From: a virus
IMG/VR virus record: IMGVR_UViG_3300029258_001212
Location: 32,001-96,000 of that record
DNA: 64,000 nt
Strand: one strand, 5' to 3'
The notes under the pieces are model-generated. The model did no database searches and was not told the DNA's origin. It worked only from the letters and a program-made list of their open reading frames with translations. A program made the position numbers and the translations under genes. Positions 246 to 31,353 of the stretch are shown piece by piece (positions within the stretch are counted from its first letter, which is position 1; each line of letters begins with the position of its first letter).

Positions 246-608
246 ATGAGCTGGTTTCTCGAGACATACCGCGAGCTCTCTGGCCTGATGGAGGCCACGG
301 CGTTCCGCGGCCTGAGCAAGGCAGAGCTCAAGGAGCTCATGGCCGAGCTCAAGTCCAAGTTCGGTCCGCTCCGGGCCAAGTATTGGACCACACCGAAGCA
401 CGCCACCGGACAGGTAACCCTGAAGCCCTACAGGCGGGACCAGGACGCCTGGGGCGAAGACCTGGACCGATGGGTGCGCCTGGTGGACCATCTCATCGCC
501 TGGGGCGCATTCAGCCCCACGGTGAGCCTCGAGAAGCAACGCGGCGAGCCTGGCGTGTGGGGTAACCAGTTCCCCCTCGCTGGATTGACGTTCTATAGGA
601 GAGCCTGA
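246..608 (+). CDS. hypothetical protein; candidate internal head (cargo) protein
   Basis: Leader MSWFLETYRELSGLME|A followed by a basic domain; TGATG coupling to next gene. Confidence 0.7.
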   Translation: MSWFLETYRELSGLMEATAFRGLSKAELKELMAELKSKFGPLRAKYWTTPKHATGQVTLKPYRRDQDAWGEDLDRWVRLVDHLIAWGAFSPTVSLEKQRGEPGVWGNQFPLAGLTFYRRA

Positions 609-1519
609 TGCGGAAAAATCATCCCTATCGTGCCACCATGCTGGCCATCAGCCGGCGGATGCAGCGCAGCGGCTACAGCGTGGCCTACACGAAGCATGGG
701 GACCATGAGCTCGGGGTGCCGGACCCACCGGCCGGGGCGGCGTGGATCTCGTTCACCGAGAGCGAGGACTGCCAGGGCTTTGCCCATGCCCTCGGGTTGC
801 TCGGGCTCGAGGAGTCCGTGAGCAAAAGCGGCCGGACATGCTTCGAGCTCCCGGACGGCGGCGCCGCGTGCGTGGTCGAGTCCGGTGACGGTACAGGGTA
901 TCTGTACCTGAGCGAGCTGGGCCCGGTGGAGGAGACCAGGGCGGCCAAGCTGGGCACCCTCCTAGAGACCATCCGCGCGCCGCGCGTCAGCGAGCCAGAT
1001 CCGCTCACCGAGGCCCGCGCGAGCCGGCCAGGGATGACCCAATTCCGCGATCTGACCCTCCGCAAAAAGGTGGTGGACCAGATCATGAAGGCCGTCATGC
1101 AGGACATTCCGATCATCCTCACCGGCCAGCCCGGGTCCGGGCGGATCATGATCGCCCGACGTATTGCCCAGATGGTGAAGGGGCCCCTCCGCGCTCCGCA
1201 CTACACGGTGAGCATGAAGGGCCTGACCGGGACGGTGCGGAACGGCCGTTACGTGGAAGGCGATCTCACCATGGCCAACCAGGGGGTGCTCCTGTTGGAC
1301 GAGGGGGCGGAGATGCGGCGGCCGGCCCTCGAGGCCATCGGCCAGGCGGTGCGCTTGAAGCAGGTGCAGCTCCCTGGGATGCAGGAGCCCCGCCAGGCGG
1401 ACTTCCACCTGGTGATGACGGCTCCGGATGCCTCCGGGGCCAAGCGCGCATTGAAGTTCATGGGGCTCACCAAGGTGGCCACCATTCACATTGCCAAGGG
1501 TGACTTGGCGGTCAAGTAG
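608..1519 (+). CDS. two-domain protein with C-terminal ComM/YifB (Mg-chelatase-like) AAA+ fragment
   Basis: ILTGQPGSGRIM (degenerate Walker A), RAPHYTVS, GDLTMANQGVLLLDE resemble ComM RAPHHTAS...GEISLAHRGVLFLDE. Confidence 0.7.
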   Translation: MRKNHPYRATMLAISRRMQRSGYSVAYTKHGDHELGVPDPPAGAAWISFTESEDCQGFAHALGLLGLEESVSKSGRTCFELPDGGAACVVESGDGTGYLYLSELGPVEETRAAKLGTLLETIRAPRVSEPDPLTEARASRPGMTQFRDLTLRKKVVDQIMKAVMQDIPIILTGQPGSGRIMIARRIAQMVKGPLRAPHYTVSMKGLTGTVRNGRYVEGDLTMANQGVLLLDEGAEMRRPALEAIGQAVRLKQVQLPGMQEPRQADFHLVMTAPDASGAKRALKFMGLTKVATIHIAKGDLAVK

Positions 1520-1531
1520 CAGGAGAACACG

Positions 1532-2155
1532 ATGAGCATCAGAACCCAGAAGCTGGCCCGGCTACTCGAGCAGATCCGCGGCGGCTCGGACGAGCCCCTG
1601 GACGAGACCATGTACGCCATCGGGTCCGGCGGTCTCCGCAAGCTCGGCGGGATGACCATCTTCCCGAACCAGGTGTATTTCATGGGCGCCTCGAGCTCGC
1701 CCAGTGGCATTTTCGTGACCCGGGTGACGGACGATGCGGTGACCTACAAACAGCTCTATTCGATGGGCAAGGAGCAGCGCATTCAGCGCCCCATCGCGGA
1801 CGACTTGGTTCGCCAGGGCACCGAGACCTGGCTCAAGTCCGGTTACCAGAAGTACCAGCCGGAGCGAGCTCGCAAGCTCAAGGCTCTCCTGGCGGGCAAG
1901 AAGCAGCCCCCGGAGAAAGAGGAGGACTACGTGCGGTGGCGCGTGGAGGTGAAGGCGGTGAACCCGCCCACCGGCAAGATGACCAGGGAGACGGATCCCT
2001 GGTATCGCGCGGAGGAGTACGGCAACGTCGGCTCGCGCGAGGACCCGAAGCACGGCACCGTCTACGAGATCACCAGCGTGACCGGGAAGGCTCTCAAGGA
2101 GCTTCGCAAGGACAAAGCATTCAAGGTGCTCAAAGCCACCCGCGAGAAACGGTAG
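1532..2155 (+). CDS. hypothetical protein; candidate internal head (cargo) protein
   Basis: SD AGGAG; leader KLARLLEQIRGGSDEPLDE|T. Confidence 0.75.
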   Translation: MSIRTQKLARLLEQIRGGSDEPLDETMYAIGSGGLRKLGGMTIFPNQVYFMGASSSPSGIFVTRVTDDAVTYKQLYSMGKEQRIQRPIADDLVRQGTETWLKSGYQKYQPERARKLKALLAGKKQPPEKEEDYVRWRVEVKAVNPPTGKMTRETDPWYRAEEYGNVGSREDPKHGTVYEITSVTGKALKELRKDKAFKVLKATREKR

Positions 2156-2164
2156 GAGGACACG

Positions 2165-2824
2165 ATGACCCCGACCCAGTACATGCTCCCCGTCCCTTAC
2201 GAGACCATCGAAGTGGACGGCCAGGAGTGGGAGGTGGTGACCGCGGGAGCGGATGCCAAGTCCTACGTGGTGAGCCTCAAGAAGCCCGGCAAGGGTGGCA
2301 ACCTCTACTACCTCGAGCTGGACCTGGAGAGCGGGGAGCCGAAGGGGTCCCCGCGCAAGATTGGCAACATCGAAATGCTCGAGGGTGATGCCCTTGGTGG
2401 GCTCCTCGGGCAGCTCCGCGAGGAGTCCGGTTTGGCGGAGGCGCGCCCACGCCTTGCCGATCAGAGATCGGTGGTCAAGATCGGCCGCTCCGGGAAATCC
2501 TACAGCTACTTCTACCAGGGTTCCACGGCGGGGCGCTGGGATGAGCTCGAGGGGCTGGACGCCCAGGAGGTGTTTCGCAAGACGCTGGCCGTTCTCAAGA
2601 TGTACCCGCAGACCACGGTGCTCCTGCCCAACAGGTGGAGCTTCGGGCGGCGATCTGAAGCTGTGCGGAGCCAGCGCCTCCCCTTTGTGCTCCTGGCGAA
2701 GCAGGGGCAGGAGGTGGACGCCACCGACAGCCCAAAGGACTTCTGGACCGAATACGGGATGCAGCTCCTACGCGGCCAAGTGAAGCTCAAGCCGCGCGAG
2801 ACGCGCCCGGCGCCGGGGTGGTAG
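2165..2824 (+). CDS. hypothetical two-domain protein; candidate cargo protein
   Basis: SD AGGAGG; internal linker LGGLLGQLREESGLAE|A. Confidence 0.75.
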   Translation: MTPTQYMLPVPYETIEVDGQEWEVVTAGADAKSYVVSLKKPGKGGNLYYLELDLESGEPKGSPRKIGNIEMLEGDALGGLLGQLREESGLAEARPRLADQRSVVKIGRSGKSYSYFYQGSTAGRWDELEGLDAQEVFRKTLAVLKMYPQTTVLLPNRWSFGRRSEAVRSQRLPFVLLAKQGQEVDATDSPKDFWTEYGMQLLRGQVKLKPRETRPAPGW

Positions 2825-2826
2825 GG

Positions 2827-3726
2827 ATGAACCTCGAGGCGATCCAGGGGCTCCTCATGGAGCTCAGGTCCCAGGTGAGCCAGATCGGGCTCGACTTCAC
2901 TGGTGCGGCAGAGCGAAAGCGCGCCAGGCGCACCCGCACGCGCGTGCGACGTGTGCCCAACCCACGGAAGCCCCGGCGCCCGTCTCCGGCCCGGGCCGAA
3001 CCAGTGCCCCTCGAGCCCCCGCCAGAGCCAGCTACCCCACGGGTCAAGCTGGCTGACTTCCGGTTGCCACCTACGCGCAAGGAGGCCCACACCGGCGAGC
3101 TCCTGGGGCGCTGTATCGACTGCAAGCGCAAGCTGGCCAAGACGGCCGGCAAGGGCACGAAGTGGTGTCCACGGTGCAACAAGCTCCACCAGCAAAGCAT
3201 CCCGGTAGACCTGGGCAGCGGGGAGCGCAAGGTCAAGAAGCGGACCAGGTGCCCCACGTGCGGCGGTGTGAAGCGCAAGACGGACTACCAGTGCCAGAAG
3301 TGTTTTCAGGCCAGGCATACCCGGTTCGCCCAGATCGAACACATCGTCCAGGCGATCCGTGAGCTCGGCAGTCTGATCCTCGAGGCCAATGCCCAGCGGC
3401 GCGACCCGTGGGAGCTCATGCCGATCCTGGACCAGTGGCTCAAGGACAAGGGATGGCGCCGCAACACGAAGGCCCCTCACTGGGTGAAACGGGCCTGGTA
3501 TAAACCGGTCTACCGCGAGGCCAAGGGAGACCAGTGGGCGAACCTTCGGAGCGCCCTCCGCAAGCTCGCCCCGAAGCTGGGCGGCAAGTACATCGAACAG
3601 CCGGCGCTGGCGGACGAGGAGGACACCCTCCTGGTGACCGTGCCGGGCTACTTCACCATCACGGCCCAGGTGCCCAACGTCCAGTTCGGCGTGGCCAAGC
3701 TGTCCGTGACGACGCGCAAGAGGTGA
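2827..3726 (+). CDS. basic zinc-finger protein
   Basis: Four CxxC pairs (CIDC, CPRC, CPTC, CQKC) and an R/P-rich N-terminal region. Confidence 0.7.
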   Translation: MNLEAIQGLLMELRSQVSQIGLDFTGAAERKRARRTRTRVRRVPNPRKPRRPSPARAEPVPLEPPPEPATPRVKLADFRLPPTRKEAHTGELLGRCIDCKRKLAKTAGKGTKWCPRCNKLHQQSIPVDLGSGERKVKKRTRCPTCGGVKRKTDYQCQKCFQARHTRFAQIEHIVQAIRELGSLILEANAQRRDPWELMPILDQWLKDKGWRRNTKAPHWVKRAWYKPVYREAKGDQWANLRSALRKLAPKLGGKYIEQPALADEEDTLLVTVPGYFTITAQVPNVQFGVAKLSVTTRKR

Positions 3727-3730
3727 CAGG

Positions 3731-5983
3731 ATGAAAACGCTGGACAAGATCGCTCGCAACGACAAGACGGGGTTCATGAAGTGGTGGGGCGAGGTTGCCG
3801 GCCTACTGAACGGCACCATGGGCGCCAATCCGGGCTACTCCAAGATCAAGATGAGCGACACCATCGGGGTCAACGTGCCCACCGGTGTGATCTACGTTTC
3901 GCCCATGCGTAGCGGGAGCGACTTCCGCGCGGAGTCCTGGATCGACAGCGAGACCGAACAAGGACACAACGCCTTCAAGTGGCGTTCCAAGGGGCTCACT
4001 CCTCGCAAGGTGGCAGCCGACATTCAACGAAAGTGGGGAAAGCATCTCTGGGAGAACACGGACGAGCAACGGATGGGTGCCATCATGGGCGTGGTACTCG
4101 AGGAGTCGGACAATATTTTGTTCCACGCGGGGCTCCTCGGGGAGCGCCAGAAGCGGCCGGGGACGGGTGACTTCCCGGACGAGTCCAAGGTGCGTCAGGG
4201 TTCCTTCAAGATCGGCCAGGACTTCATGAAGCTGGTGAAGCAGGAGAAGCTCGACGGGCCTCACATGCTTCTGTTCAGGGAGGTGCGGGACCACATCAAC
4301 AAGATCCCCAGGGAGAAGCTCCCGGAGATCTGGGGCCTGGACAACATCCCGGATGCCCAGGACGAGATCGCCCGAGCTCCACGCAAGGCGTTCCAGGCGT
4401 TCCTGCGAAACGTCCACAAGGTGGACCGCAAGCTCGCCGGGTACATCCGGCGCATCGCGGACAACGTACCGCTGGTCTGGTACATGATCATGCAGAGGAT
4501 CAGCGGCAAGGACATGGCGGACATCATCCTGAACCGCTACTTCACAACCAAGAATTACTACGAGCCGTCGCAGCGTGTGAAGATGCGCGACAAGCGGCGC
4601 CGTAAGGCAAGCAAGATGCCCTCCGGCAGCCAGCCCGGACTGTTTCCCGAGGGGCAGGAGCTGGACGAGGGCATTATGAAAAAGCACGCGGGCCTCTACA
4701 AGGCGCCGGACCGGGGAAGCTCGCAGAGCTATGTGCTGGTGAAGCGTGGTTCCGAGGGCTATCTGAAAAAGTGGGCCGAGCGCCAAGGACTCGTGTTCCA
4801 CGGCGGCCACGGCCTGAGCGGGGAAAAGGGTTACTTCGAGGACCCGAACACCGGGAGCTACTACGTGCTGGGCACGGGCAACAAGCGCAGCCCGTTCGCC
4901 GCGAACGAGGATCAGGACTCCCTCGGTGAGCTCCTCGGTGAGCTCGAGGAGGCCAAGGGCAAGTGCGGCCGGAAGCCTCGAGGCGGTGGTGTCCAGGACG
5001 GCAAGGGCCCGCATGGGGCCGGGCGCGGGCGCGGGCGGATGGAGCTCGAGGACCAGGAGCTCGGGGAGGCGGCCAGCCCCGAGCAGCTCCACCAAGCCAA
5101 GATGATGATCATCAAGATGCTGGACCAGGCGGTCCGCAAGGCCATCGGTGGCAGCGTCAAGGGCTTCACCGGTGACAAGGGCGGTGCCGTCATGGGCCGG
5201 TGGGTCACGAAGTCCAAGCTCGGGGAGCACACAATGATCGTTCGCATCCCGCCCAGGATGACCGAATTCAGTGTGTCCACTTACACGAAGCACAAGAACG
5301 CCAACATCAAACCCAAGGTGCTGGACGAGACCATGGTGGACATGCGGAAGGTGTGGAAGGGGGACAAGAAGTACGATTGGCGCCCCATCACAGATCTGTT
5401 CAAGCAAGAGATCGCCACCGGCGGCAACCGCAACGTCGTGTCCGTGGAGGACCAGGACAACCTCGGTGAGCTCCTGGGCGAGCTCCGCCAGGCGTCCGGG
5501 CTCGAGGACCTGGACGAGGCGGCGCGCCCCAAGCTGATCAAGGGTGACACGGTGCCCAAGGACCTGGCGGCCCTGTGGCCAGTGCTCCGGCGGTTCGGCT
5601 TCAAGCGCCCCAAGCTCAAGCGGACGGTGGAGTACGAGGGCACGCCTCACCAGTACACCATGGTTATGCCGGCCAGCGGGATCTGGGAGCGCAGCGGGAG
5701 CCGCAAGAAGTCCGCGTTCACGTCCAAGGAACGCTGGGAACTCTCCAAGGCGATCAAGGAGTGGGCCGCGAAGCACGGATGGACCCACAAGATGGGTCCG
5801 CGGGGGTTCCACGGCAATGAAACGGACACCTTTGCGAAGATGCAGCCCAAGCTCCCGACCCACAAGGTGCCCAACGAAGCGCACCTCACCATGCGTACTT
5901 CCGGGCGCCTCAAGAGCGGTTACGCCCCCGGCGAGGACGTGCTCCAGAACGTCTACTTCAATCTCAGCTACGCCACCAGATAG
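3731..5983 (+). CDS. 750-aa modular polyprotein-like protein; candidate internal head protein
   Basis: Basic domains separated by repeated acidic linkers EDQD(S/N)LGELLGEL...LxE. Confidence 0.8.
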   Translation: MKTLDKIARNDKTGFMKWWGEVAGLLNGTMGANPGYSKIKMSDTIGVNVPTGVIYVSPMRSGSDFRAESWIDSETEQGHNAFKWRSKGLTPRKVAADIQRKWGKHLWENTDEQRMGAIMGVVLEESDNILFHAGLLGERQKRPGTGDFPDESKVRQGSFKIGQDFMKLVKQEKLDGPHMLLFREVRDHINKIPREKLPEIWGLDNIPDAQDEIARAPRKAFQAFLRNVHKVDRKLAGYIRRIADNVPLVWYMIMQRISGKDMADIILNRYFTTKNYYEPSQRVKMRDKRRRKASKMPSGSQPGLFPEGQELDEGIMKKHAGLYKAPDRGSSQSYVLVKRGSEGYLKKWAERQGLVFHGGHGLSGEKGYFEDPNTGSYYVLGTGNKRSPFAANEDQDSLGELLGELEEAKGKCGRKPRGGGVQDGKGPHGAGRGRGRMELEDQELGEAASPEQLHQAKMMIIKMLDQAVRKAIGGSVKGFTGDKGGAVMGRWVTKSKLGEHTMIVRIPPRMTEFSVSTYTKHKNANIKPKVLDETMVDMRKVWKGDKKYDWRPITDLFKQEIATGGNRNVVSVEDQDNLGELLGELRQASGLEDLDEAARPKLIKGDTVPKDLAALWPVLRRFGFKRPKLKRTVEYEGTPHQYTMVMPASGIWERSGSRKKSAFTSKERWELSKAIKEWAAKHGWTHKMGPRGFHGNETDTFAKMQPKLPTHKVPNEAHLTMRTSGRLKSGYAPGEDVLQNVYFNLSYATR

Positions 5984-6092
5984 CACTCCTCTGAGGCATA
6001 AGCCCTTGACAGGGCTTGTATCCCCTCCATATTTCGGGCACGATAAGGGTAGTTAAGGGCAAGCAAGCGAAAGCGGCCCGACGAGGTGTACC

Positions 6093-9091: not shown

Positions 9092-10804
9092 ATGGCGAAC
9101 CTGGGCAATCGGATCGTCAACTACGTTCGGGGGATTTTCAGCCGCGACACCGAGGAGCGGATTGAGGCAGCCGGAGGGGTGAACGTCGGGGACTTCCCGA
9201 TGGATCCATTCGGAAACCTGCAAGTCCAGCACATCGGGCAGAACGTGGTCCAGGACGCCCTGATGGTGTCCAATGCTCTGATGGCGCGGATGATCGACTA
9301 CGAGCGCATGGATGAGTATCCGGACTGCAATGCCGCGTTGAACATCTACGCGGACGATGCAACGGTTCCAGATCCGAGCACAAACCATGTGATGTGGTCC
9401 GTGTGTCGGGACGAGCAGATCCGCGGGATGCTCGACACCATGCTACACAGGCGGCTCCACGTGGACGATGAAGCGTGGGAAGCGATCCGGATGCTGGTGA
9501 AGTACGGAAACGACTTCGAGGAGATCCTGGTCAACTCCCGCGGTGTCCAAGGACTCAACTTTCTTCCAGCGCCTACGTGCCGACGCCTCGAGGGGAAACA
9601 GGGCGAGCTCAAGGGCTTCGTGCAGAGCTTCAGGGGCAACTTCACGGTGAACCCAGGCCAGCTCCAGGGGATGCAGTTCCGCCAGGGCGTGGGGCGTGAG
9701 CCACGCAGCGGCGTGGCCCTCTTCGAGCCGTGGCGTGTGGTTCACATGCGGCTCCGGAGCAACCGGCGCCGGGCGATGTACGGGATCGGGATCCTCGAGG
9801 CGTGCAGGTGGGTCTGGAAGCGCCTCATTCTCCTCGAGGACGCGGCGCTGATCAGCCGGCTGGCTCGAGCTCCCAGTCGCTTCGCGTTCTACGTGGACGT
9901 GGGCAAGCTGTCCACCGAGAACGCGGAGAAGTACCTGGACGAGATGCGCCGGAAGCTCAAGAAAAAGAAGTTCGTGAACCCACGGACCGGCCAGCTCGAT
10001 CTACGATTCAACCCTCTGTCCACGGATGAGGATTTCTTCCTCCCGGTGCGCGACAGCCGGGAGGTGGTCCGAGCGGACGTGCTCAACACGCCCACCTGGA
10101 CGGGCGTGGAAGATGTGGCCTACTTCCGCGACAAGCTCCACGCCAGTCTGATGATCCCGAAGGCGTACCTGGGCTACGATGAGAATCTCCCGAGCCGCGC
10201 TACGCTCTCCCAGGAGGACGTGCGGTTCGCCCGGACGGTGCTCCGGGTCCAGCGCGAGTACAAGGCGGGGATGCGGAAGGTGGCCAAGGTACACCTCGCC
10301 AGTCAGGGGATCGATCCGGCCTATGTGGACTTCGATCTGGCCATGACGGTGCCGAGCTCCATCTTCGAGCTCGCACGCCTCGAGATCCAGAACACCCGAG
10401 CCACGTTCGCTGCCCAGATGGGTGAGCTCGTTTCGAAGCACTGGCTTCTCGCCAACGTGTTCAACTTCTCGGACGCTGAGATCGAAAAAGTGATGGTGCA
10501 GCGGCGCGAGGAGCTCACCGAGGAAATGAAGATCCAGCAAGGGCAATTCGAATCCAGGGCCCTCCCCGTCAGAAGCCCGAACCGAATGCTCACGGACAAC
10601 CGTTCCGCGCCAGCGCGCACGCGCGAGCTGTACGGCGTGGAGCGGGATCTGTTCGCAGGAAGCCGCGAAGCGGAGAAACGCCTCGAGGGACGACTGGACC
10701 AGATGCTCACCGAGAACAGGCGTTTCGGAATGCAGCTCGCGCAGATCCAATCCTTCCTGGGCGAGGTGCGCGGAGCCATTCGCACCTCCCAGATGCCTCG
10801 CTGA
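9092..10804 (+). CDS. portal protein, T4 gp20-like
   Basis: LILLEDAALISRLARAPSRFAFYVDVGKL, EDFFLPVR, EDVAYFRDKL, SQEDVRFARTVLRVQ. Confidence 0.93.
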   Translation: MANLGNRIVNYVRGIFSRDTEERIEAAGGVNVGDFPMDPFGNLQVQHIGQNVVQDALMVSNALMARMIDYERMDEYPDCNAALNIYADDATVPDPSTNHVMWSVCRDEQIRGMLDTMLHRRLHVDDEAWEAIRMLVKYGNDFEEILVNSRGVQGLNFLPAPTCRRLEGKQGELKGFVQSFRGNFTVNPGQLQGMQFRQGVGREPRSGVALFEPWRVVHMRLRSNRRRAMYGIGILEACRWVWKRLILLEDAALISRLARAPSRFAFYVDVGKLSTENAEKYLDEMRRKLKKKKFVNPRTGQLDLRFNPLSTDEDFFLPVRDSREVVRADVLNTPTWTGVEDVAYFRDKLHASLMIPKAYLGYDENLPSRATLSQEDVRFARTVLRVQREYKAGMRKVAKVHLASQGIDPAYVDFDLAMTVPSSIFELARLEIQNTRATFAAQMGELVSKHWLLANVFNFSDAEIEKVMVQRREELTEEMKIQQGQFESRALPVRSPNRMLTDNRSAPARTRELYGVERDLFAGSREAEKRLEGRLDQMLTENRRFGMQLAQIQSFLGEVRGAIRTSQMPR

Positions 10805-11992: not shown

Positions 11993-13066
11993 ATGCAAAA
12001 CCGACCGATCCACACCCTGGCCGAGGACTTCCAGTACCTGGGTCTTCCGGTGGACGAGACGGACCACCTGGACGAGATGGACGCCCCGCCCGCGCCCGAC
12101 AAGAAGCAGGCGGCCATGCAGAAGAAGATGAACGTGGCCAAGACGAAGATGGCGGCGCTTCAGAAGAAAGCCCTCAAGGCCGGTGTGCCGGCGGAGGACG
12201 TGGAGCTGGCCATGCTGTCCGTCACCGAGGACGAGCTGGACGAGCTCCCCGAGGACATGGAGACGCTGGACGAGTTCAAGATCGTCAAGTTCTTCAAGAA
12301 CCTCCTCAAGAAAGGCAAGAAGAAGCCGTCCCGCGCCGAGCGGCTCAAGAAGGCCAAAAAGGCGAAGCAGTACCGCAAGGGCCGGGGCCGGTCCCAAGCC
12401 AAGCGGTATCGCAAGAGCTCCCGCTTCAAGAAGCTCAAGAAGCTCTACGCCAAGGCCAAGAAGATGGGCAAAAAGGCCGTGAAGGGCGCCCGGCGCAGCT
12501 TCGCGTCCATGCTCGGCTCGAGCACCGAGTACCCAGGTGGCCAGGAGCTGTCCGAGCTCGGGTCCATCATCAACGCCCTCGAGCACACCGAGGACAGCTC
12601 CCAGTACGCGGCCGGCTACGCCAACATCGCCAAGGCGGCAACGGCCACGGCCGGCGGTCTCCGCGAGCTGGACGAGAGCTACGTGGACATTCACTTCCCG
12701 CTGGACGAGGCGGCCGACTACTGCGAGCTCATCGCCGCGGAGGCCCGGGAGTTCCTGGGCGCCCTCGAGGAGCGCGACGGCACCATCAGCGTGGAGGACC
12801 AGCGGCTCCTGGACGAGCACCTCGCTGAGCTCCACGCGGAAGCCCTCGCCATGGCCAACTACGCCGACGACACCAACATCCTGGTGGCGCTGGACGAGGG
12901 GCGGATGCCCTTCGAGCAGGAGGTGGTGGAGAGCGAGGGTCTGTTCGGCGCGGAGCTGGACGAGGACGAGGACCTGTTCTTCGAGGACGAGGACGAGGAC
13001 GAGGAAGATCCCTTCGAGGGGATCCGCGGCGAAGTCGCCCTCATGTTCGGTATCCGTCACCGCTAG
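11993..13066 (+). CDS. prohead core / scaffold-like protein
   Basis: Very basic block (T4 gp68-like character) flanked by acidic regions with many LxE sites; directly precedes the protease. Confidence 0.65.
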   Translation: MQNRPIHTLAEDFQYLGLPVDETDHLDEMDAPPAPDKKQAAMQKKMNVAKTKMAALQKKALKAGVPAEDVELAMLSVTEDELDELPEDMETLDEFKIVKFFKNLLKKGKKKPSRAERLKKAKKAKQYRKGRGRSQAKRYRKSSRFKKLKKLYAKAKKMGKKAVKGARRSFASMLGSSTEYPGGQELSELGSIINALEHTEDSSQYAAGYANIAKAATATAGGLRELDESYVDIHFPLDEAADYCELIAAEAREFLGALEERDGTISVEDQRLLDEHLAELHAEALAMANYADDTNILVALDEGRMPFEQEVVESEGLFGAELDEDEDLFFEDEDEDEEDPFEGIRGEVALMFGIRHR

Positions 13067-13075
13067 GAGGCCACC

Positions 13076-14644
13076 GTGGACCAGGTACTCACAGACTGCC
13101 AGCTATTCCGATTCGAGCTGGTGGAGGACCGGGAGGGCTCCGGGGGCATGGTAGCCCGCGGGCCCTTTGCCCGGGCAGGAGTGCCGACGGCCAACGGCCG
13201 GGTGTACTCCGGCAAGCTCTGGGAGCGAGAGCTGTCCCGGCTCCAGGACAAGATCAAGACGAGCAGCTTGTTCGGACTCCTGGACCACCCACAGGACGGC
13301 AAGACCACGCTCAAGGAAGCGTCTCACCTGATCACCAAGCTGACCTTCGATGGCACCAACGTCATCGGGGAGATGCGAGTGCTCGACACCCCCAACGGGC
13401 GCATCCTGAAGTCCATCATCGAAAGCGGAGGCGTTGTGGGCGTCTCCAGCCGTGGCGTGGGGACCACCCGCAAGAACCAACAGGGCATGAGCGAGGTTCA
13501 AGACGACTATCGGCTCCTGTCCTTTGACGCCGTGGCGGACCCGGCGAACGCTACGTCTTGGCCGAAGTTCACCACCGAGGCCGACGATCCGGAGGAGAAC
13601 ATGCCCCTCACCCTCGAGCAACTGAAGGAAACGCACCCCGAGCTGGTGCAGATGATCCAGGCGGAGGCCGTGGCAGACGTGGAGCCGGCCCCGGCGGCGC
13701 CCGACACCGAGGACATGCGCGAGAAGCTCTTGTCCATGGTGCAGGAGCAGCGCGCGGAGGTGGAGAGCCAGGTGCGGAGCGAGCTCCTGAGCGACCCGTC
13801 CGTGGGCGGCTCGCGGCTCGCCCTCGAGGGGGTGATCAAGCTCCTCCGGCCCCTGATGCTCACCGAGGATCAGCACGCCGTCCTGGAGAACAAGGAAGAG
13901 GAGCTGGCGGACACCCGGGCCAAGCTCGAGGAGGCACAGGAGCAGATCTCCCAGCTCGAGGCGGCCGTGGAGGAGCTGGTGGGCATCACCGAGGAGCTCT
14001 CCTGTCGCTACTACGCCGAGCGCGCCCTGGGTACACTCGAGGAGGTGGACACGAAGGAGCACATCCTCGGGATGCTCGGGGACCTGTCCCGCTTCGGATC
14101 CATCGAAGAGTTCAAGGAGGCCCTCGCTTCCACCGTGGAGTCGGTGCTCACCGAGACCACGCGCCAGGAGGAGGAGAACGCAGAGCTCGCGGCCATGAAG
14201 GCCGAGAACGAGAAGCTCCGCAAGGCCCTGGGCAAGTCTGTGGAGCTCGGCAAGGCCCTGGGCACCAAGGCGTACCTCGAGCAGCGCCTGAACGCTCATC
14301 CCCAGGCCAGCGCCATCCGCGAGCAAGCGGAGAACGTGCGTCTGGAGGGCAAGCGTGCCGTGGATCGCCTGATCGAATCCTTCGAGGCGGCCAACCCCTT
14401 GTCGGACGAGTTCGATCAGATCTCGTCCGAGTTCGGCGGCGGCCTGTCCCACCTCACCGAGGGGGACGAGGATCCGCAGGACTTCACCGAGGGGTTCACG
14501 GGCGCCATGCACATGCCGGAGGGTGGCGGCGGCCAGGTGCCCCTCACCGAGGACGGCTACGATCTGTTCGGTGTGGGCCAGAAAGAGCTCCGGAAGCTCT
14601 GCGGCCTGTCCGAGGGACGCGACGACGACAAGGGGCCCTACTAG
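13076..14644 (+). CDS. prohead protease (T4 gp21-like) fused to coiled-coil scaffold
   Basis: ANGRVY, GLLDHP, ASHLI, LDTPNGRIL, GVSSRGVG, FDAVADPA; long acidic coiled-coil C-terminus. Confidence 0.92.
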   Translation: MDQVLTDCQLFRFELVEDREGSGGMVARGPFARAGVPTANGRVYSGKLWERELSRLQDKIKTSSLFGLLDHPQDGKTTLKEASHLITKLTFDGTNVIGEMRVLDTPNGRILKSIIESGGVVGVSSRGVGTTRKNQQGMSEVQDDYRLLSFDAVADPANATSWPKFTTEADDPEENMPLTLEQLKETHPELVQMIQAEAVADVEPAPAAPDTEDMREKLLSMVQEQRAEVESQVRSELLSDPSVGGSRLALEGVIKLLRPLMLTEDQHAVLENKEEELADTRAKLEEAQEQISQLEAAVEELVGITEELSCRYYAERALGTLEEVDTKEHILGMLGDLSRFGSIEEFKEALASTVESVLTETTRQEEENAELAAMKAENEKLRKALGKSVELGKALGTKAYLEQRLNAHPQASAIREQAENVRLEGKRAVDRLIESFEAANPLSDEFDQISSEFGGGLSHLTEGDEDPQDFTEGFTGAMHMPEGGGGQVPLTEDGYDLFGVGQKELRKLCGLSEGRDDDKGPY

Positions 14645-14705: not shown

Positions 14706-16205
14706 ATGCAGGCAAGAGACATGGTGAAGGCCCCGGGCGGCTTCGGAGGCCAGGACCGGGTGGACGAGATCCTCAAGCAGAAGTGGGCGTGGCTCCTCGA
14801 CGGAATCGAGGAGGACTGGGATCGGCGCAACCTGGCGCGCCTCTTCGAGAACCAGATGAACCACCTCCGCGACGAGGTGCGGAAGTCCGGGATCATCAGC
14901 GAAGCCACCACCAAGGCGGCCGTGCCGGACTACGTGAAGTTCATCTTCCCGCTGGTCCGCCGCGTCTGGGCGAGCCTGTTCGCCAACGGCCTGGTGAGCG
15001 TCCAGCCGATGAGCGCCCCCATCGGCGGGATCTTCTTCTTCGAGTACAAGTACGGCACCACCAAGGGATCGGTCACCGCGGGTCAGAACATGATCCAGAA
15101 CTTCGACCGGTTCTACAGCTCGGAGCGCGTGTACCACGAGCTGGTGGACACCGGAGACGGTGCCACGGCCAACTACACCGGGACCCTGGACTGGTTCCCG
15201 GTGGTGCCGAAGGACAACTTCGGCCGCGCGGGCCTCGAGTTCACCACGGTGGACGTGTCCGACAACGTGCTCCGGATCTACGATGCGGACGGATCCGGCA
15301 CCCTGGCCGGTGACACGGGCGGCGCGTCCACGGTCACCTACGCCAGCGGCGACTTCAACATCACGTTCTCCGCGAACGTGAAGAACCTCACCCCCATCTA
15401 CGCCAACTACTGGTTCAGCATGGAGGCGGCCAGTGCCAACGTGCCGGAGGTGAACGTCGAGATCTCCCTCGAGCCCGTCCAGGCGTGGAGCCGCAAGCTC
15501 AAGGCGCTGTGGAGCTCGGAGGCGGCCGACGACATGCGCGCCATGCTCGGGCTCGACATCGAATCCGAGCTGGTGGGCGGCCTGGCCAGCGAGATCGGGC
15601 TGGAGATCGACCGCGAGATCATCCAGGACCTGTACGTGGCGGCGGACGCCGGCACCAACAAGGACACCTTCGACGCGACGGTGCCCCCCGGCCGGAGCCC
15701 GGTGGAGCACTACTCCGGGATCCTCACCAAGCTGGACAAGATCGCCACGGAGATCCACACCCGCACCAAGCGCGGTCCGGGCAACTTCATCGTGTGCGCG
15801 CCCGACGTGTCCACGGTGATCTCGGCCCTGAGCCGCCACGGCGACTTCAAGGGCGTGTTCTCCCAGACCGATCCCGTCCAGGGCATCGGCACCGGCGGGC
15901 GCCCCGGCTTCCCGCTCCCGAACGCCCCGCAGGGCTACGGGATCTTCGAGGCCGGCACGCTCCAGAACCGCTGGCGCGTGATCGTGGATCCGTACTTCGA
16001 GTCGGGCAAGGCCGTGGTCGGGCTCAAGGGGAGCACCTTCCTCGACAGCGGCTACGCCTACGCCCCCTACGTGGGGCTCCAGATCACCAGCACCTGGCTG
16101 GATCCGGGCAACTTCCAGGCCCGCAAGGGCCTCCGGACCCGGTACGCCACGAAGCTGATGAACAGCAACTTCTACGGCGCCCTCGAGGTGAACAACACCC
16201 CGTAG
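14706..16205 (+). CDS. major capsid protein, T4 gp23-like
   Basis: FPLVRRV, VSVQPMSAP, SRKLKALWSSEAADD, EIGLEIDREII, YAYAPYV, KGLRTRYA; propeptide ends IISE|A. Confidence 0.95.
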   Translation: MQARDMVKAPGGFGGQDRVDEILKQKWAWLLDGIEEDWDRRNLARLFENQMNHLRDEVRKSGIISEATTKAAVPDYVKFIFPLVRRVWASLFANGLVSVQPMSAPIGGIFFFEYKYGTTKGSVTAGQNMIQNFDRFYSSERVYHELVDTGDGATANYTGTLDWFPVVPKDNFGRAGLEFTTVDVSDNVLRIYDADGSGTLAGDTGGASTVTYASGDFNITFSANVKNLTPIYANYWFSMEAASANVPEVNVEISLEPVQAWSRKLKALWSSEAADDMRAMLGLDIESELVGGLASEIGLEIDREIIQDLYVAADAGTNKDTFDATVPPGRSPVEHYSGILTKLDKIATEIHTRTKRGPGNFIVCAPDVSTVISALSRHGDFKGVFSQTDPVQGIGTGGRPGFPLPNAPQGYGIFEAGTLQNRWRVIVDPYFESGKAVVGLKGSTFLDSGYAYAPYVGLQITSTWLDPGNFQARKGLRTRYATKLMNSNFYGALEVNNTP

Positions 16206-29187: not shown

Positions 29188-31353
29188 ATGGCGGAATACC
29201 TGAGCCCGGGCGTCTACATCGAGGAGCGAGCGGCGGGTCCCGCGGTGGTCAGCGGCGTGAGCACGTCCACGTGCGCCACCGTGGGCTGGCTCCAGCGCGG
29301 ACCGGTGGGGAAGGCCACCCTGGTCACGGGGTTCGATGACTTCGTGGACAAGTTCGGCTCCTACTGGAGCAACAGCTACGTGCCCTACGCCATGGCGGCG
29401 TTCTTCTCCAACGGTGGCTCCCGCGCGTACATCGTGCGCGAGGTGCCGGCCAACGCGGTGAAGGCGGACTGCGCCATCGAAGATGCGGACCAGGCGGCCT
29501 ACGTGCTGGGCTGGCGCATCCCGGCGGCGGGCATCACCATCACGGCCACCACCGATGACGGGCTCAAGGTCACGGACGAGGCGGCGGCCTACGATGACAT
29601 TGACCTGACCGCGGGCGGTGGCACCGGGACCTACACGGCCACCCAGATCGCCGCTGCGATCAACGCGGACATTTCCGCCACGTCCACGGCCTCGGTGGTC
29701 ACCGACACGGACGGCTACCAGCGGATCAAGATCACGTCGGACCAGACCGGCGGCACGGGCGCGAGCTCCTCGGTGGCGGTGGAGGCCCCCACCACCCTGG
29801 GCGATGGCACCCAGCTCATCTTCGGTGGCACCCCGAGTGCCACCGGGTCGGACCAGGCGGATCGCTGGTCGATCACGGCCGAGAACGAGGGCGCCTGGGG
29901 CAACCTGGTCAAGGCGTGCCTGATCGGCAACGATTCCTACCGGGACACCACCAACGGCGGCTACACCAAGTTCGACATGCTGGTGTACGAGGAGAGCTCC
30001 CTCGGGGCCGGCGACTACGTGGTGCAGGAGCAGCTCGGGCCGTTCAACCTCACCACGGCGGGTGATCCGGACTACTTCGTGGACGAGGTGAACGCCAAGT
30101 CGGACCTGGTGCGCGTGGCGGCCGGCGCCAGCCCGGGCGTACCCTGGGAGCTCCAGCCGGCCACCTGGACGGCCGAGCCGCTGTTCCTCGAGGACGGTGC
30201 CAGCTTGGCCTACACGCTCTATCTGGCGCACCCGGAGGTGCTCCGGAGCTCGGTGAGCATCACCGATGGCACCGAGACGTTCACCGACGACGGCAATGGC
30301 ACCCTCACGGGTGACCAGGGCGGCGACGGGACGATCAACTACACCACCGGGTACGTGACCCTCAACTTCAACGCCACGGGTACGGCGGTGGTGACGGCCA
30401 CCTACAAACAGGTGAGCCATGACACCGAGGCGTGCTGCACCCTGTCCGGCGGCTCGGACGGCACGGGCGGTCTGACCCGTTCCCTGGTGACGGACCCGGC
30501 GCTCCAGTCCAGCCGGCGCGGGATCTACGCCCTGGACCAGATCGAAGAGATCCTCCAGGTGTTCCTCCCGGACTTCGCGGGCTCGGTGATCGTGGCCAAC
30601 GACCTGATCGCCTGGGCGGAGGACGGCAAGGACCGGTTCATCCTCCTGGATCCGGCTTCGGATCTCACCCCCCAGGAGGTGCTCGAGTACCGGCAGTTCA
30701 CCGGGGCGTTCGCCAGCTCCTACGCGGCGCTGTACTACCCCTGGGTGACCATCGCCAACAGCCTGGCGAACAACCGGCCCATGAACATGCCCCCCTCGGG
30801 CTTCGTGGCCGGCGTGTTCGCCCGGACGGATCAGCAGCGGAACGTCGGAAAGGCCCCCGCGGGCATCAACGACGGGAAGCTCCTCCTGGCCATCGGGCTC
30901 GAGTACGACACGAGCAAGGGCGAGCGGGATCTGATCTACCCGGCGAACATCAACCCCCTGGTGGACAGCCCCCAGACGGGCCGGGCTGTATGGGGCGCTC
31001 GGACCATGAGCATCGACGCGGAGTGGAAGTACATCCAGGTCCGCAGGTTGTTCATGTTCCTGGAGAAGTCCACGTTCCTGGCCACCCACTGGGCGGTCTT
31101 CGAGTCCAACAACGCGGGGCTGTGGGCGCGGATCTCCGCGAGCCTCAACTCGTTCATGCTCAACCTCCACAACGAGGGCTACTTCGCCGGGCAGGATCCG
31201 GACGAGTCCTTCAAGGTGGTGTGCGACAGCACCAACAACCCCCAGGAGAACATCGACCTGGGCCTGGTGACGTGCGACATTTACGCCGCTCCGAACAAGC
31301 CCGGCGAATTCGTGCGGTTCCGGTTCCAGCAAAAGGTCAACCAGAGCGCCTAA
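29188..31353 (+). CDS. tail sheath protein
   Basis: MAEYLSPGVYIEE, YAALYYPWV, PPSGFVAGVFARTD, GKAPAG, VWGART, WKYIQVRRLF, KPGEFVRFRF. Confidence 0.96.
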   Translation: MAEYLSPGVYIEERAAGPAVVSGVSTSTCATVGWLQRGPVGKATLVTGFDDFVDKFGSYWSNSYVPYAMAAFFSNGGSRAYIVREVPANAVKADCAIEDADQAAYVLGWRIPAAGITITATTDDGLKVTDEAAAYDDIDLTAGGGTGTYTATQIAAAINADISATSTASVVTDTDGYQRIKITSDQTGGTGASSSVAVEAPTTLGDGTQLIFGGTPSATGSDQADRWSITAENEGAWGNLVKACLIGNDSYRDTTNGGYTKFDMLVYEESSLGAGDYVVQEQLGPFNLTTAGDPDYFVDEVNAKSDLVRVAAGASPGVPWELQPATWTAEPLFLEDGASLAYTLYLAHPEVLRSSVSITDGTETFTDDGNGTLTGDQGGDGTINYTTGYVTLNFNATGTAVVTATYKQVSHDTEACCTLSGGSDGTGGLTRSLVTDPALQSSRRGIYALDQIEEILQVFLPDFAGSVIVANDLIAWAEDGKDRFILLDPASDLTPQEVLEYRQFTGAFASSYAALYYPWVTIANSLANNRPMNMPPSGFVAGVFARTDQQRNVGKAPAGINDGKLLLAIGLEYDTSKGERDLIYPANINPLVDSPQTGRAVWGARTMSIDAEWKYIQVRRLFMFLEKSTFLATHWAVFESNNAGLWARISASLNSFMLNLHNEGYFAGQDPDESFKVVCDSTNNPQENIDLGLVTCDIYAAPNKPGEFVRFRFQQKVNQSA

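Follow-up and report, generated by a model that had tools for sequence, protein, structure and literature searches.

In RNA viruses and retroviruses, polyproteins are made as one translation product that a viral protease cuts at short consensus sites. In phage T4 the head protease gp21 follows the rule (L/I)-x-E and the major capsid protein gp23 is cut at E65↓A66 (arrows mark bonds that are cut or predicted to be cut). Processing of the T4 internal protein IPIII is governed by residues 8 and 10 (P3 and P1) of its capsid targeting sequence (CTS) (PMC9026906). The protease substrates of giant phages include many head-internal proteins of unassigned role (PMC10052503, PMC9026906). Polyvalent proteins carry 2–15 mosaic domains in each chain and undergo rapid shuffling; their delivery together with the DNA is presumed (PMC5512222). 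We found no paper in the literature on head-protease-processed cargo polyproteins in phages. Here we describe a candidate, the 750-amino-acid (aa) open reading frame (ORF) P0001. It lies in a window, the whole stretch of 64,000 nucleotides (nt) analysed, that comprises bases 32001–96000 of the 153,540-bp IMG/VR virus record IMGVR_UViG_3300029258_001212; direct terminal repeats are present in the record. We propose, with a probability of about 0.6, that P0001 is the precursor of several small proteins that would be carried inside the phage head and cut by the Peptidase_S77 prohead protease.

The predicted chain (83 kDa, isoelectric point (pI) 9.7) contains five acidic linkers. All five had been quoted in an earlier, sequence-only reading of this DNA, and all are present in P0001 at the residues listed in Table 1. 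They end at Glu-138, Glu-313, Glu-407, Glu-446 and Glu-596. Each site is L-x-E (5/5), with Leu invariably at P3, and is followed by Arg, Gly or Ala; the 12 residues before each site carry a net charge of −2 to −5. The sequence LGELLGEL is a tandem doubling of CTCGGTGAGCTC. The motif is enriched over the composition of the protein: [LI]xE occurs 16 times against 5.9 ± 2.2 expected from 5000 shuffles, and LGE seven times against 0.4. About six basic domains had also been suggested. The six pieces are there, with sizes of 4–21 kDa, but only most of them are basic: with each acidic linker tail assigned to the preceding piece, the pI values are 8.0, 10.0, 6.3, 9.6, 9.1 and 10.3.

The genome encodes an enzyme of the matching kind. 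The prohead protease scores 72 bits against PF03420 (cut-off 27) and matches PHROG 207 with an E value of 1.6e-50; in an alignment its His (His71) and GVSSRG serine columns match those of T4 gp21. The predicted maturation site of the capsid protein, I-I-S-E66↓A67 (codon 66 at nt 14901–14903), follows the conserved FENQ motif and precedes the mature body, and the equivalent N-terminal segment of T4 gp23 reads F-L-T-E65↓A66. The phage is a very distant T4-type, its capsid protein being at most ~30–33% identical to that of any cultured phage. In the scaffold-like protein adjoining the protease, a centre of ~70 residues is nearly all Lys/Arg. This basic centre is a candidate, and a plausible one, for an electrostatic docking partner of acidic leaders and linkers.

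An exhaustive HMMER search with P0001 returned only two full-length relatives. About 70 representative clusters match only residues ~136–290, that is module 2 (E < 1e-10), in proteins of 77 to 2118 aa where the match may be N-terminal, central or C-terminal. At 61 module 2 boundaries, collected with a pattern anchored on Glu at P1, an aliphatic-x-E motif precedes the module in all but one (P3 is Leu in 38, Ile in 13, Val in 7, Met in 2 and Lys in 1). P2 is any of 15 different residues, and P1′ is Arg, Ala or Gly. The boundary lies in an N-terminal leader of 6–30 aa in 25 of these proteins and is internal in the other 36. The same modules are found behind leaders and behind linkers. On contig L010, which is unrelated and of low G+C content (GC), modules 4 and 2 are encoded by two genes side by side, each starting with a leader: MASNLIDKLDYLLNE↓IKGPCGR... 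for module 4 and MSKLEGLLNE↓AQKK... for module 2. The latter module is 54% identical to that of the window, and the LNE of the module 4 leader aligns exactly with LEE407 of linker 3. A stand-alone module 4 gene (P0080) has a 15-aa N-terminal leader ending LNE↓, and in P0087 an internal linker, LNGLLAGLRQDE↓, stands ahead of module 4. The simplest reading of these sequences is that the modules were once leader-bearing genes, the linkers being former leaders. We note that the stand-alone module 2 gene (L010:1582-2109) itself ends ...MSKLNMLLNNLLDE↓SRNR, as if the leader of the next gene had been fused to its C-terminus; this tail is a possible gene-fusion intermediate.

Linkers of the same kind recur in other members of the module 2 family. 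P0026 has repeated DDLDE↓A linkers, P0082 has ESEDHL(G/S)E↓ linkers, and P0031 and P0084 have varied acidic L-x-E sites. In L013, a 185-kb IMG/VR phage that encodes an S77 protease, a 1038-aa ORF contains seven (E/S)(D/A)xDDLxE↓ linkers (five of them EDVDDLxE↓), 68–190 aa apart; two are identical over ~30 nt and one stands directly before module 2. The 673-aa ORF directly upstream (L013:975-2996) has a HEIGH (HExxH) metallopeptidase-like motif, which recalls the self-processing peptidases proposed for polyvalent proteins. The 16 large family members gave no Pfam, PHROG or PADLOC match except a sub-threshold KOW-like one in P0036, and P0038 has no relative in IMG/VR. A tblastn search of 50,697 phage records with P0001 and the low-GC module 2 gene returned no match, placing module 2 in no cultured phage among them.

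Like P0001, both full-length relatives are found upstream of the head module, at an equivalent position, and they show how the chain has changed. Comparison of domain order had been set beforehand as a test, full-length collinearity of the homologues being the outcome that would speak against a modular precursor. The closest relative, L002 (from a 153-kb genome that also encodes an S77 protease), is collinear from end to end but mosaic: identity to P0001 is 81% in module 1, 59% in the module 2 core, 93–97% from the module 2 tail to module 5 and 42% in the module 6 body. The other relative, P0010 of L003, is not collinear. It is syntenic, lying upstream of the portal, protease and capsid genes, and has the order 1-2-5-4′-new: modules 3 and 4 are absent between two Q-E-L-x-E-type linkers, and module 4 instead follows module 5, flanked by two linker copies. 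The module 2 core of the window is more similar to that of L003 (67%) than to that of L002 (59%), the reverse of modules 1 and 5, and this cassette therefore has a different history. The order in the syntenic relative and the incongruent similarity of module 2 bear out the earlier suggestion that cargo domains are shuffled. Every relative that has these linker sites conserves them, P2 being free; the site between modules 1 and 2, for instance, appears as LGE, LNE and LTE in the three relatives. By comparison, five of the seven [LI]xE sites within domains (197, 497, 531, 651 and 675) are lost in at least one relative.

Two of the linkers had been described as near-identical in DNA. The repeat (4907–4945 and 5447–5485) is real, but near-identity overstates it: 34 of 39 positions agree (87%), and three of the five differences are synonymous. 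A third copy, at 2378–2416 in the 219-aa gene upstream, is as expected related to these, with 67% DNA identity and a clearly related peptide; against residues 564–610 of P0001 the linker of this gene is 41% identical (BLASTP, E 8e-4). A six-frame translation of the 153.5-kb genome contains the pattern LG[EG]LLG[EQ]L at only three places, two in P0001 and one in ORF 2165–2824. For the most part the linker copies differ by synonymous changes, a pattern that suggests selection acting on the peptide, and we take linker conservation to be mainly at the peptide level. The proposal that linker DNA serves as a homology module for shuffling is not borne out. The copies agree at 82–87% over 39 nt, their longest exact runs being ~14 nt or less, an identity too low and too short to back it, and in L003 they escape detection as DNA repeats.

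Structure prediction agrees in part with independent domains. Module 2 modelled alone with its family alignment by AlphaFold 2 (AF2) is a confident helical domain (predicted local distance difference test, pLDDT, 89.4), the residues before the site being poorly ordered. The full-length model, on the other hand, is poor (mean pLDDT 47, predicted template modelling score, pTM, 0.26). Its ordered islands are modules 1 (residues 1–108, pLDDT 59–83), 2, 5 and 6, and confidence is low over every linker. Searches for the module 2 fold (Foldseek against PDB and BFVD, a PDB profile search, ESM Atlas and VIA wide) stayed within noise; the best match, Z 5.4 to an FF-domain repeat, carries no information for a helical model. 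P0001 has no Pfam match (also at E ≤ 5) and no PHROG or PADLOC match.

The modules differ in their distribution. Module 3 has a homologue only in the closest relative (exhaustive HMMER search) and is missing from P0010. Module 4 has the consensus CGRxPxGxGVQDGKGPHGxG(R/V)GRG with one Cys (window 4952–5068; L010:988-1551; L012:179-1036). It is common to phages of very different GC, always directly after an L-x-E (or Q-D-E) site, and could be a small released peptide. Modules homologous to module 5 are found in P0082, P0083 and P0088. In module 6, residues 631–750 are 42% identical to the closest relative, and an unrelated module takes this place in P0010. Should the cargo reading hold, these and other hypervariable modules would be candidate counter-defence or DNA-handling proteins delivered by injection. 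A 727-aa antisense ORF (3803–5986, − strand) shadows the whole gene, as is typical of DNA with 63–65% GC. We reject it as a non-coding high-GC artefact because it is the + frame that carries the homologues, the synonymous pattern and the confident fold, and the antisense ORF should stay unannotated.

P0001 sits in a run of related genes (Table 1). Segments of the L(L/M)x(E/Q)L type are grouped in successive + strand genes at 29.7–37.5 kb of the genome, as an N-terminal leader in some (e.g. MNTDKLRNLLGELRSGDLEE↓G and MSWFLETYRELSGLME↓A) and internally in others. One internal linker, in the gene at 29458 of the genome, matches the leader of the gene that follows (30286) at 76% identity over a stretch of 17 aa. 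Gene junctions in the cluster are near-constant, TAG-GAG-GAC-ACC-ATG, with stop and start in frame and the stop overlapping the AGGAGG ribosome-binding site. Because stop and start are in frame, adjacent genes would become fused by a single base change in the stop codon. In three linkers the first residues are E-D-Q-(D/E), coded GAG-GA(C/T)-CAG-GA(C/G), which might be a translated gene junction with its Shine–Dalgarno region. We hold this idea tentatively and with some doubt: linker start and junction agree weakly, at 7 of 15 bases, and the analogous L013 linkers occur without a matching junction. Amber read-through of the in-frame TAG junctions was dropped, there being no tRNA genes and the conserved genes being open under table 11. 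ARAGORN found zero tRNA or tmRNA genes in the 153.5-kb genome. Such an absence is unusual for a T4-type phage this large. Also inside the cluster, at window 608–1519, is a MoxR/Mg-chelatase-like AAA+ ATPase with GLLGLEE↓S and DPLTE↓A upstream of the ATPase domain; on these motifs it may itself be processed head cargo.

Table 1 Features of the window and subdivision of P0001 (window positions unless marked as genome)
Feature	Position	Strand	Remarks
120-aa gene	246–608	+	16-aa leader ending GLME↓A
207-aa gene	1532–2155	+	25-aa N-terminal leader ending PLDE↓T
219-aa gene	2165–2824	+	internal linker copy LGGLLGQLREESGLAE↓A, residues 77–93, nt ~2393–2443
Leader-bearing gene	2827–3726	+	N-terminal leader MNLEAIQGLLMELRSQ...
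In-frame junction sites	genome 29455–29460, 30283–30288, 31315–31320; window 1517–1534, 2153–2167		
P0001, 750-aa ORF	3731–5983	+	predicted head-cargo polyprotein precursor; open, ATG start
Module 1	3731–4144	+	residues 1–138, 15.4 kDa, alpha+beta, ends in linker 1
Linker 1	4130–4144		GLLGE↓R, residues 134–139
Module 2	4145–4669	+	residues 139–313, 20.6 kDa, pI 10.0, all-helical, basic tail, ends in linker 2
Linker 2	4652–4669		GQELDE↓G, residues 308–314
Module 3	4670–4951	+	residues 314–407, 10.3 kDa, ends in linker 3
Linker 3	4907–4951		EDQDSLGELLGELEE↓A, residues 393–408
Module 4	4952–5068	+	residues 408–446, 4.0 kDa, Gly/Arg-rich peptide, ends in linker 4
Linker 4	5048–5068		EDQELGE↓A, residues 440–447
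Module 5	5069–5518	+	residues 447–596, 16.8 kDa, helix + beta-sheet, ends in linker 5
Linker 5	5447–5518		EDQDNLGELLGELRQASGLEDLDE↓A, residues 573–597
Module 6	5519–5983	+	residues 597–750, 17.6 kDa, pI 10.3, hypervariable, C-terminal
Portal_T4 protein	9092–10804		Pfam score far over cut-off
Scaffold-like protein	11993–13066	+	acidic ends, extremely basic centre; next to protease
Prohead protease, Peptidase_S77 (T4 gp21 family)	13076–14644	+	long C-terminal extension; Pfam, PHROG
Major capsid protein, gp23-type	14706–16205	+	Pfam Gp23, score far over cut-off

That the chain is a polyprotein matured by the head protease was already suggested by the sequence-only reading, and comparison backs it through the protease, the L-x-E sites, the conserved linkers and the stand-alone modules, cleavage itself being predicted. 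We envisage the following sequence of events. The 83-kDa chain would be produced late in infection and drawn into the prohead core during assembly by its acidic amphipathic LLGEL-type segments, a counterpart of the T4 capsid targeting sequence; the docking site of these segments may be the strongly basic middle part of the scaffold-like protein. The gp21-type serine protease would then cleave the chain at L-x-E, behind Glu residues 138, 313, 407, 446 and 596, with extra trimming possible at 400/404 and 580/584. After loss of acidic linker remnants the products would be of ~15, 21, 10, 4, 17 and 18 kDa; they would remain with the DNA and probably be ejected into the host. Such a chain could have arisen by in-frame fusion of neighbouring leader-bearing cargo genes, the N-terminal leaders becoming internal linkers, with cassettes subsequently gained, lost, swapped and reordered at the linkers.

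Several points weigh against this proposal. The phage is uncultured, and the polyprotein is predicted from sequence. P0001 has no L-x-E leader at its own N-terminus, its first [LI]xE being at residue 106, and we know of no experimental precedent for internal targeting sequences. In the count of 61 boundaries the Glu at P1 was imposed by the anchor pattern, which is partly offset by an independent MAFFT alignment of 30 module 2 family members in which E138 is nearly invariant. The E-R/A-Q-K boundary of module 2 could also be a structural feature of the domain and not a cleavage site. The check for an S77 protease in the same phage covered a minority of module 2 family members. The full-length AF2 model serves as an island map only, being too poor to prove domain independence, and no module matches any family or any solved or predicted structure, or has a recognisable function.

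P0001 might instead be an ordinary multi-domain protein that works uncut, its acidic Leu/Glu-rich segments being flexible or helical connectors in which L-x-E follows from composition. Acidic amphipathic helices do contain L-x-E naturally, the virion RNA polymerase of phage N4, a polyvalent protein, is packaged unprocessed (cited in PMC5512222), and the closest relative is collinear throughout. Against this, P3 and P1 are conserved with P2 free exactly at module boundaries in 61 diverse sequences, sites in linkers and in domain bodies differ in conservation, the same modules are also encoded by separate genes behind short leaders that carry this motif at their end, and the genome holds both an S77 protease and a capsid site to match. 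We regard an uncut protein as unlikely. If the sites are cut, the enzyme might still be another one, from host or phage, or the cut might come after injection, the likeness to the gp21 rule being coincidental. Processing by their own metallopeptidase domains has been proposed for polyvalent proteins (PMC5512222), and an HExxH-bearing ORF adjoins the analogous L013 polyprotein. No peptidase domain was found in P0001 or its neighbours, however, and the motif is both the T4 rule and the predicted site of the capsid protein of this phage, which makes a different enzyme very improbable.

A different fate for the pieces must also be weighed. The gene lies just upstream of the head module, and its many sites and acidic segments resemble the degradation of scaffolds and propeptides; in giant phages propeptides are cut at several sites for clearance (PMC10052503). 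P0001 could then be a core or scaffold component like T4 gp22, gp67 and gp68, or like the multi-cut propeptides of phiKZ and SPN3US, broken down to peptides that exit the head, one mature product at most being left behind. The modules argue otherwise, being basic, and module 2 being confidently folded, widely conserved and independently encoded. A separate scaffold-like protein adjoins the protease, and hypervariable modules fit conflict-type cargo better, so that we consider a scaffold role quite unlikely.

If P0001 is a processed cargo precursor, the T4 rule of targeting peptide plus head-protease cut would extend from single cargo to strings of cargo. Wherever a phage encodes an S77 protease, acidic segments that close with L-x-E would then serve as a sequence rule for predicting the mature virion-internal proteome, and many very long orphan ORFs in uncultured phages would be explained. 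The linkers would be ready parts for packaging several foreign proteins in T4-type capsids. The wider claim is that a broad, undescribed clade of uncultured phages with T4-type head proteases encodes its injected cargo as polyproteins of up to ~2,100 aa, made of fused leader-bearing genes, with the capsid protease as processing enzyme and with cassettes traded at the linkers; to this we would give slightly less than an even chance. Such a strategy would be the parallel, in dsDNA phages, to the polyproteins of RNA viruses, and would offer a natural scaffold for delivering several cargoes.

The comparison with RNA-virus and retrovirus polyproteins has its limits. Here the virus is a tailed dsDNA phage whose protease, the enzyme of capsid maturation, has a gene of its own, and the pieces released would serve as accessory cargo, not as essentials of replication or structure. 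At least two units of P0001 appear independent, as module 2 is predicted to fold alone and modules 2 and 4 are separate genes in L010. With polyvalent proteins (Iyer et al. 2017, PMC5512222) P0001 shares a mosaic domain order and solo versions of the same domains. Those proteins, however, are defined by recognisable enzymatic or anti-defence domains and their own metallopeptidase, whereas here the predicted enzyme is the head protease, acting at regular linkers; no methylase, ADP-ribosyltransferase (ART), peptidase, ParB or lysozyme domain was found in P0001 (Pfam E ≤ 5, PADLOC). The promoter–early stem–loop (PeSL) shuffling of the hyperplastic regions of T4-type phages (Arbiol et al. 2010, PMC2839356) is similar in that short conserved flanks of orphan cassettes match insertion, deletion and replacement differences. 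PeSLs differ in being intergenic promoter/terminator cassettes of ~100 bp with demonstrated recombination products, the linkers here being coding, 20–70 nt long and 82–87% identical.

The inner-body and ejection proteins of phiKZ, 201phi2-1 and SPN3US (gp175/gp245; PMC10052503, PMC9026906) are alike in having a T4-related protease and several sites after Glu in each substrate. There the motif is (S/A/G)-x-E, and the extra cuts clear long N-terminal propeptides to leave one mature product. In this phage, of 153 kb, P3 is Leu at all five sites and the pieces look like independent modules; P0001 gave no sequence or fold match to viral models that would place it with the phiKZ-like proteins. The T4 internal proteins IPI, IPII, IPIII and Alt (PMC9026906, PMC3012670) are closer. 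They share the gp21/S77 protease and a site after the Glu of (L/I)-x-E (the cut being predicted here), and they too are small, basic, diverse and fast-evolving cargo in which only a short acidic-hydrophobic signal is conserved. CTS-led T4 precursors look the same as the module 2 family members that have 6–30-aa N-terminal leaders. What differs is that six cargoes here share one ORF, with internal signals and no N-terminal leader of its own, and that P0001 has no homology to IPI, IPII, IPIII or Alt (tblastn against the 50,697 phage records; Pfam, PHROG). Although not a sequence member of that family, the proposed processed-cargo system would thus work like the T4 internal-protein/CTS system.

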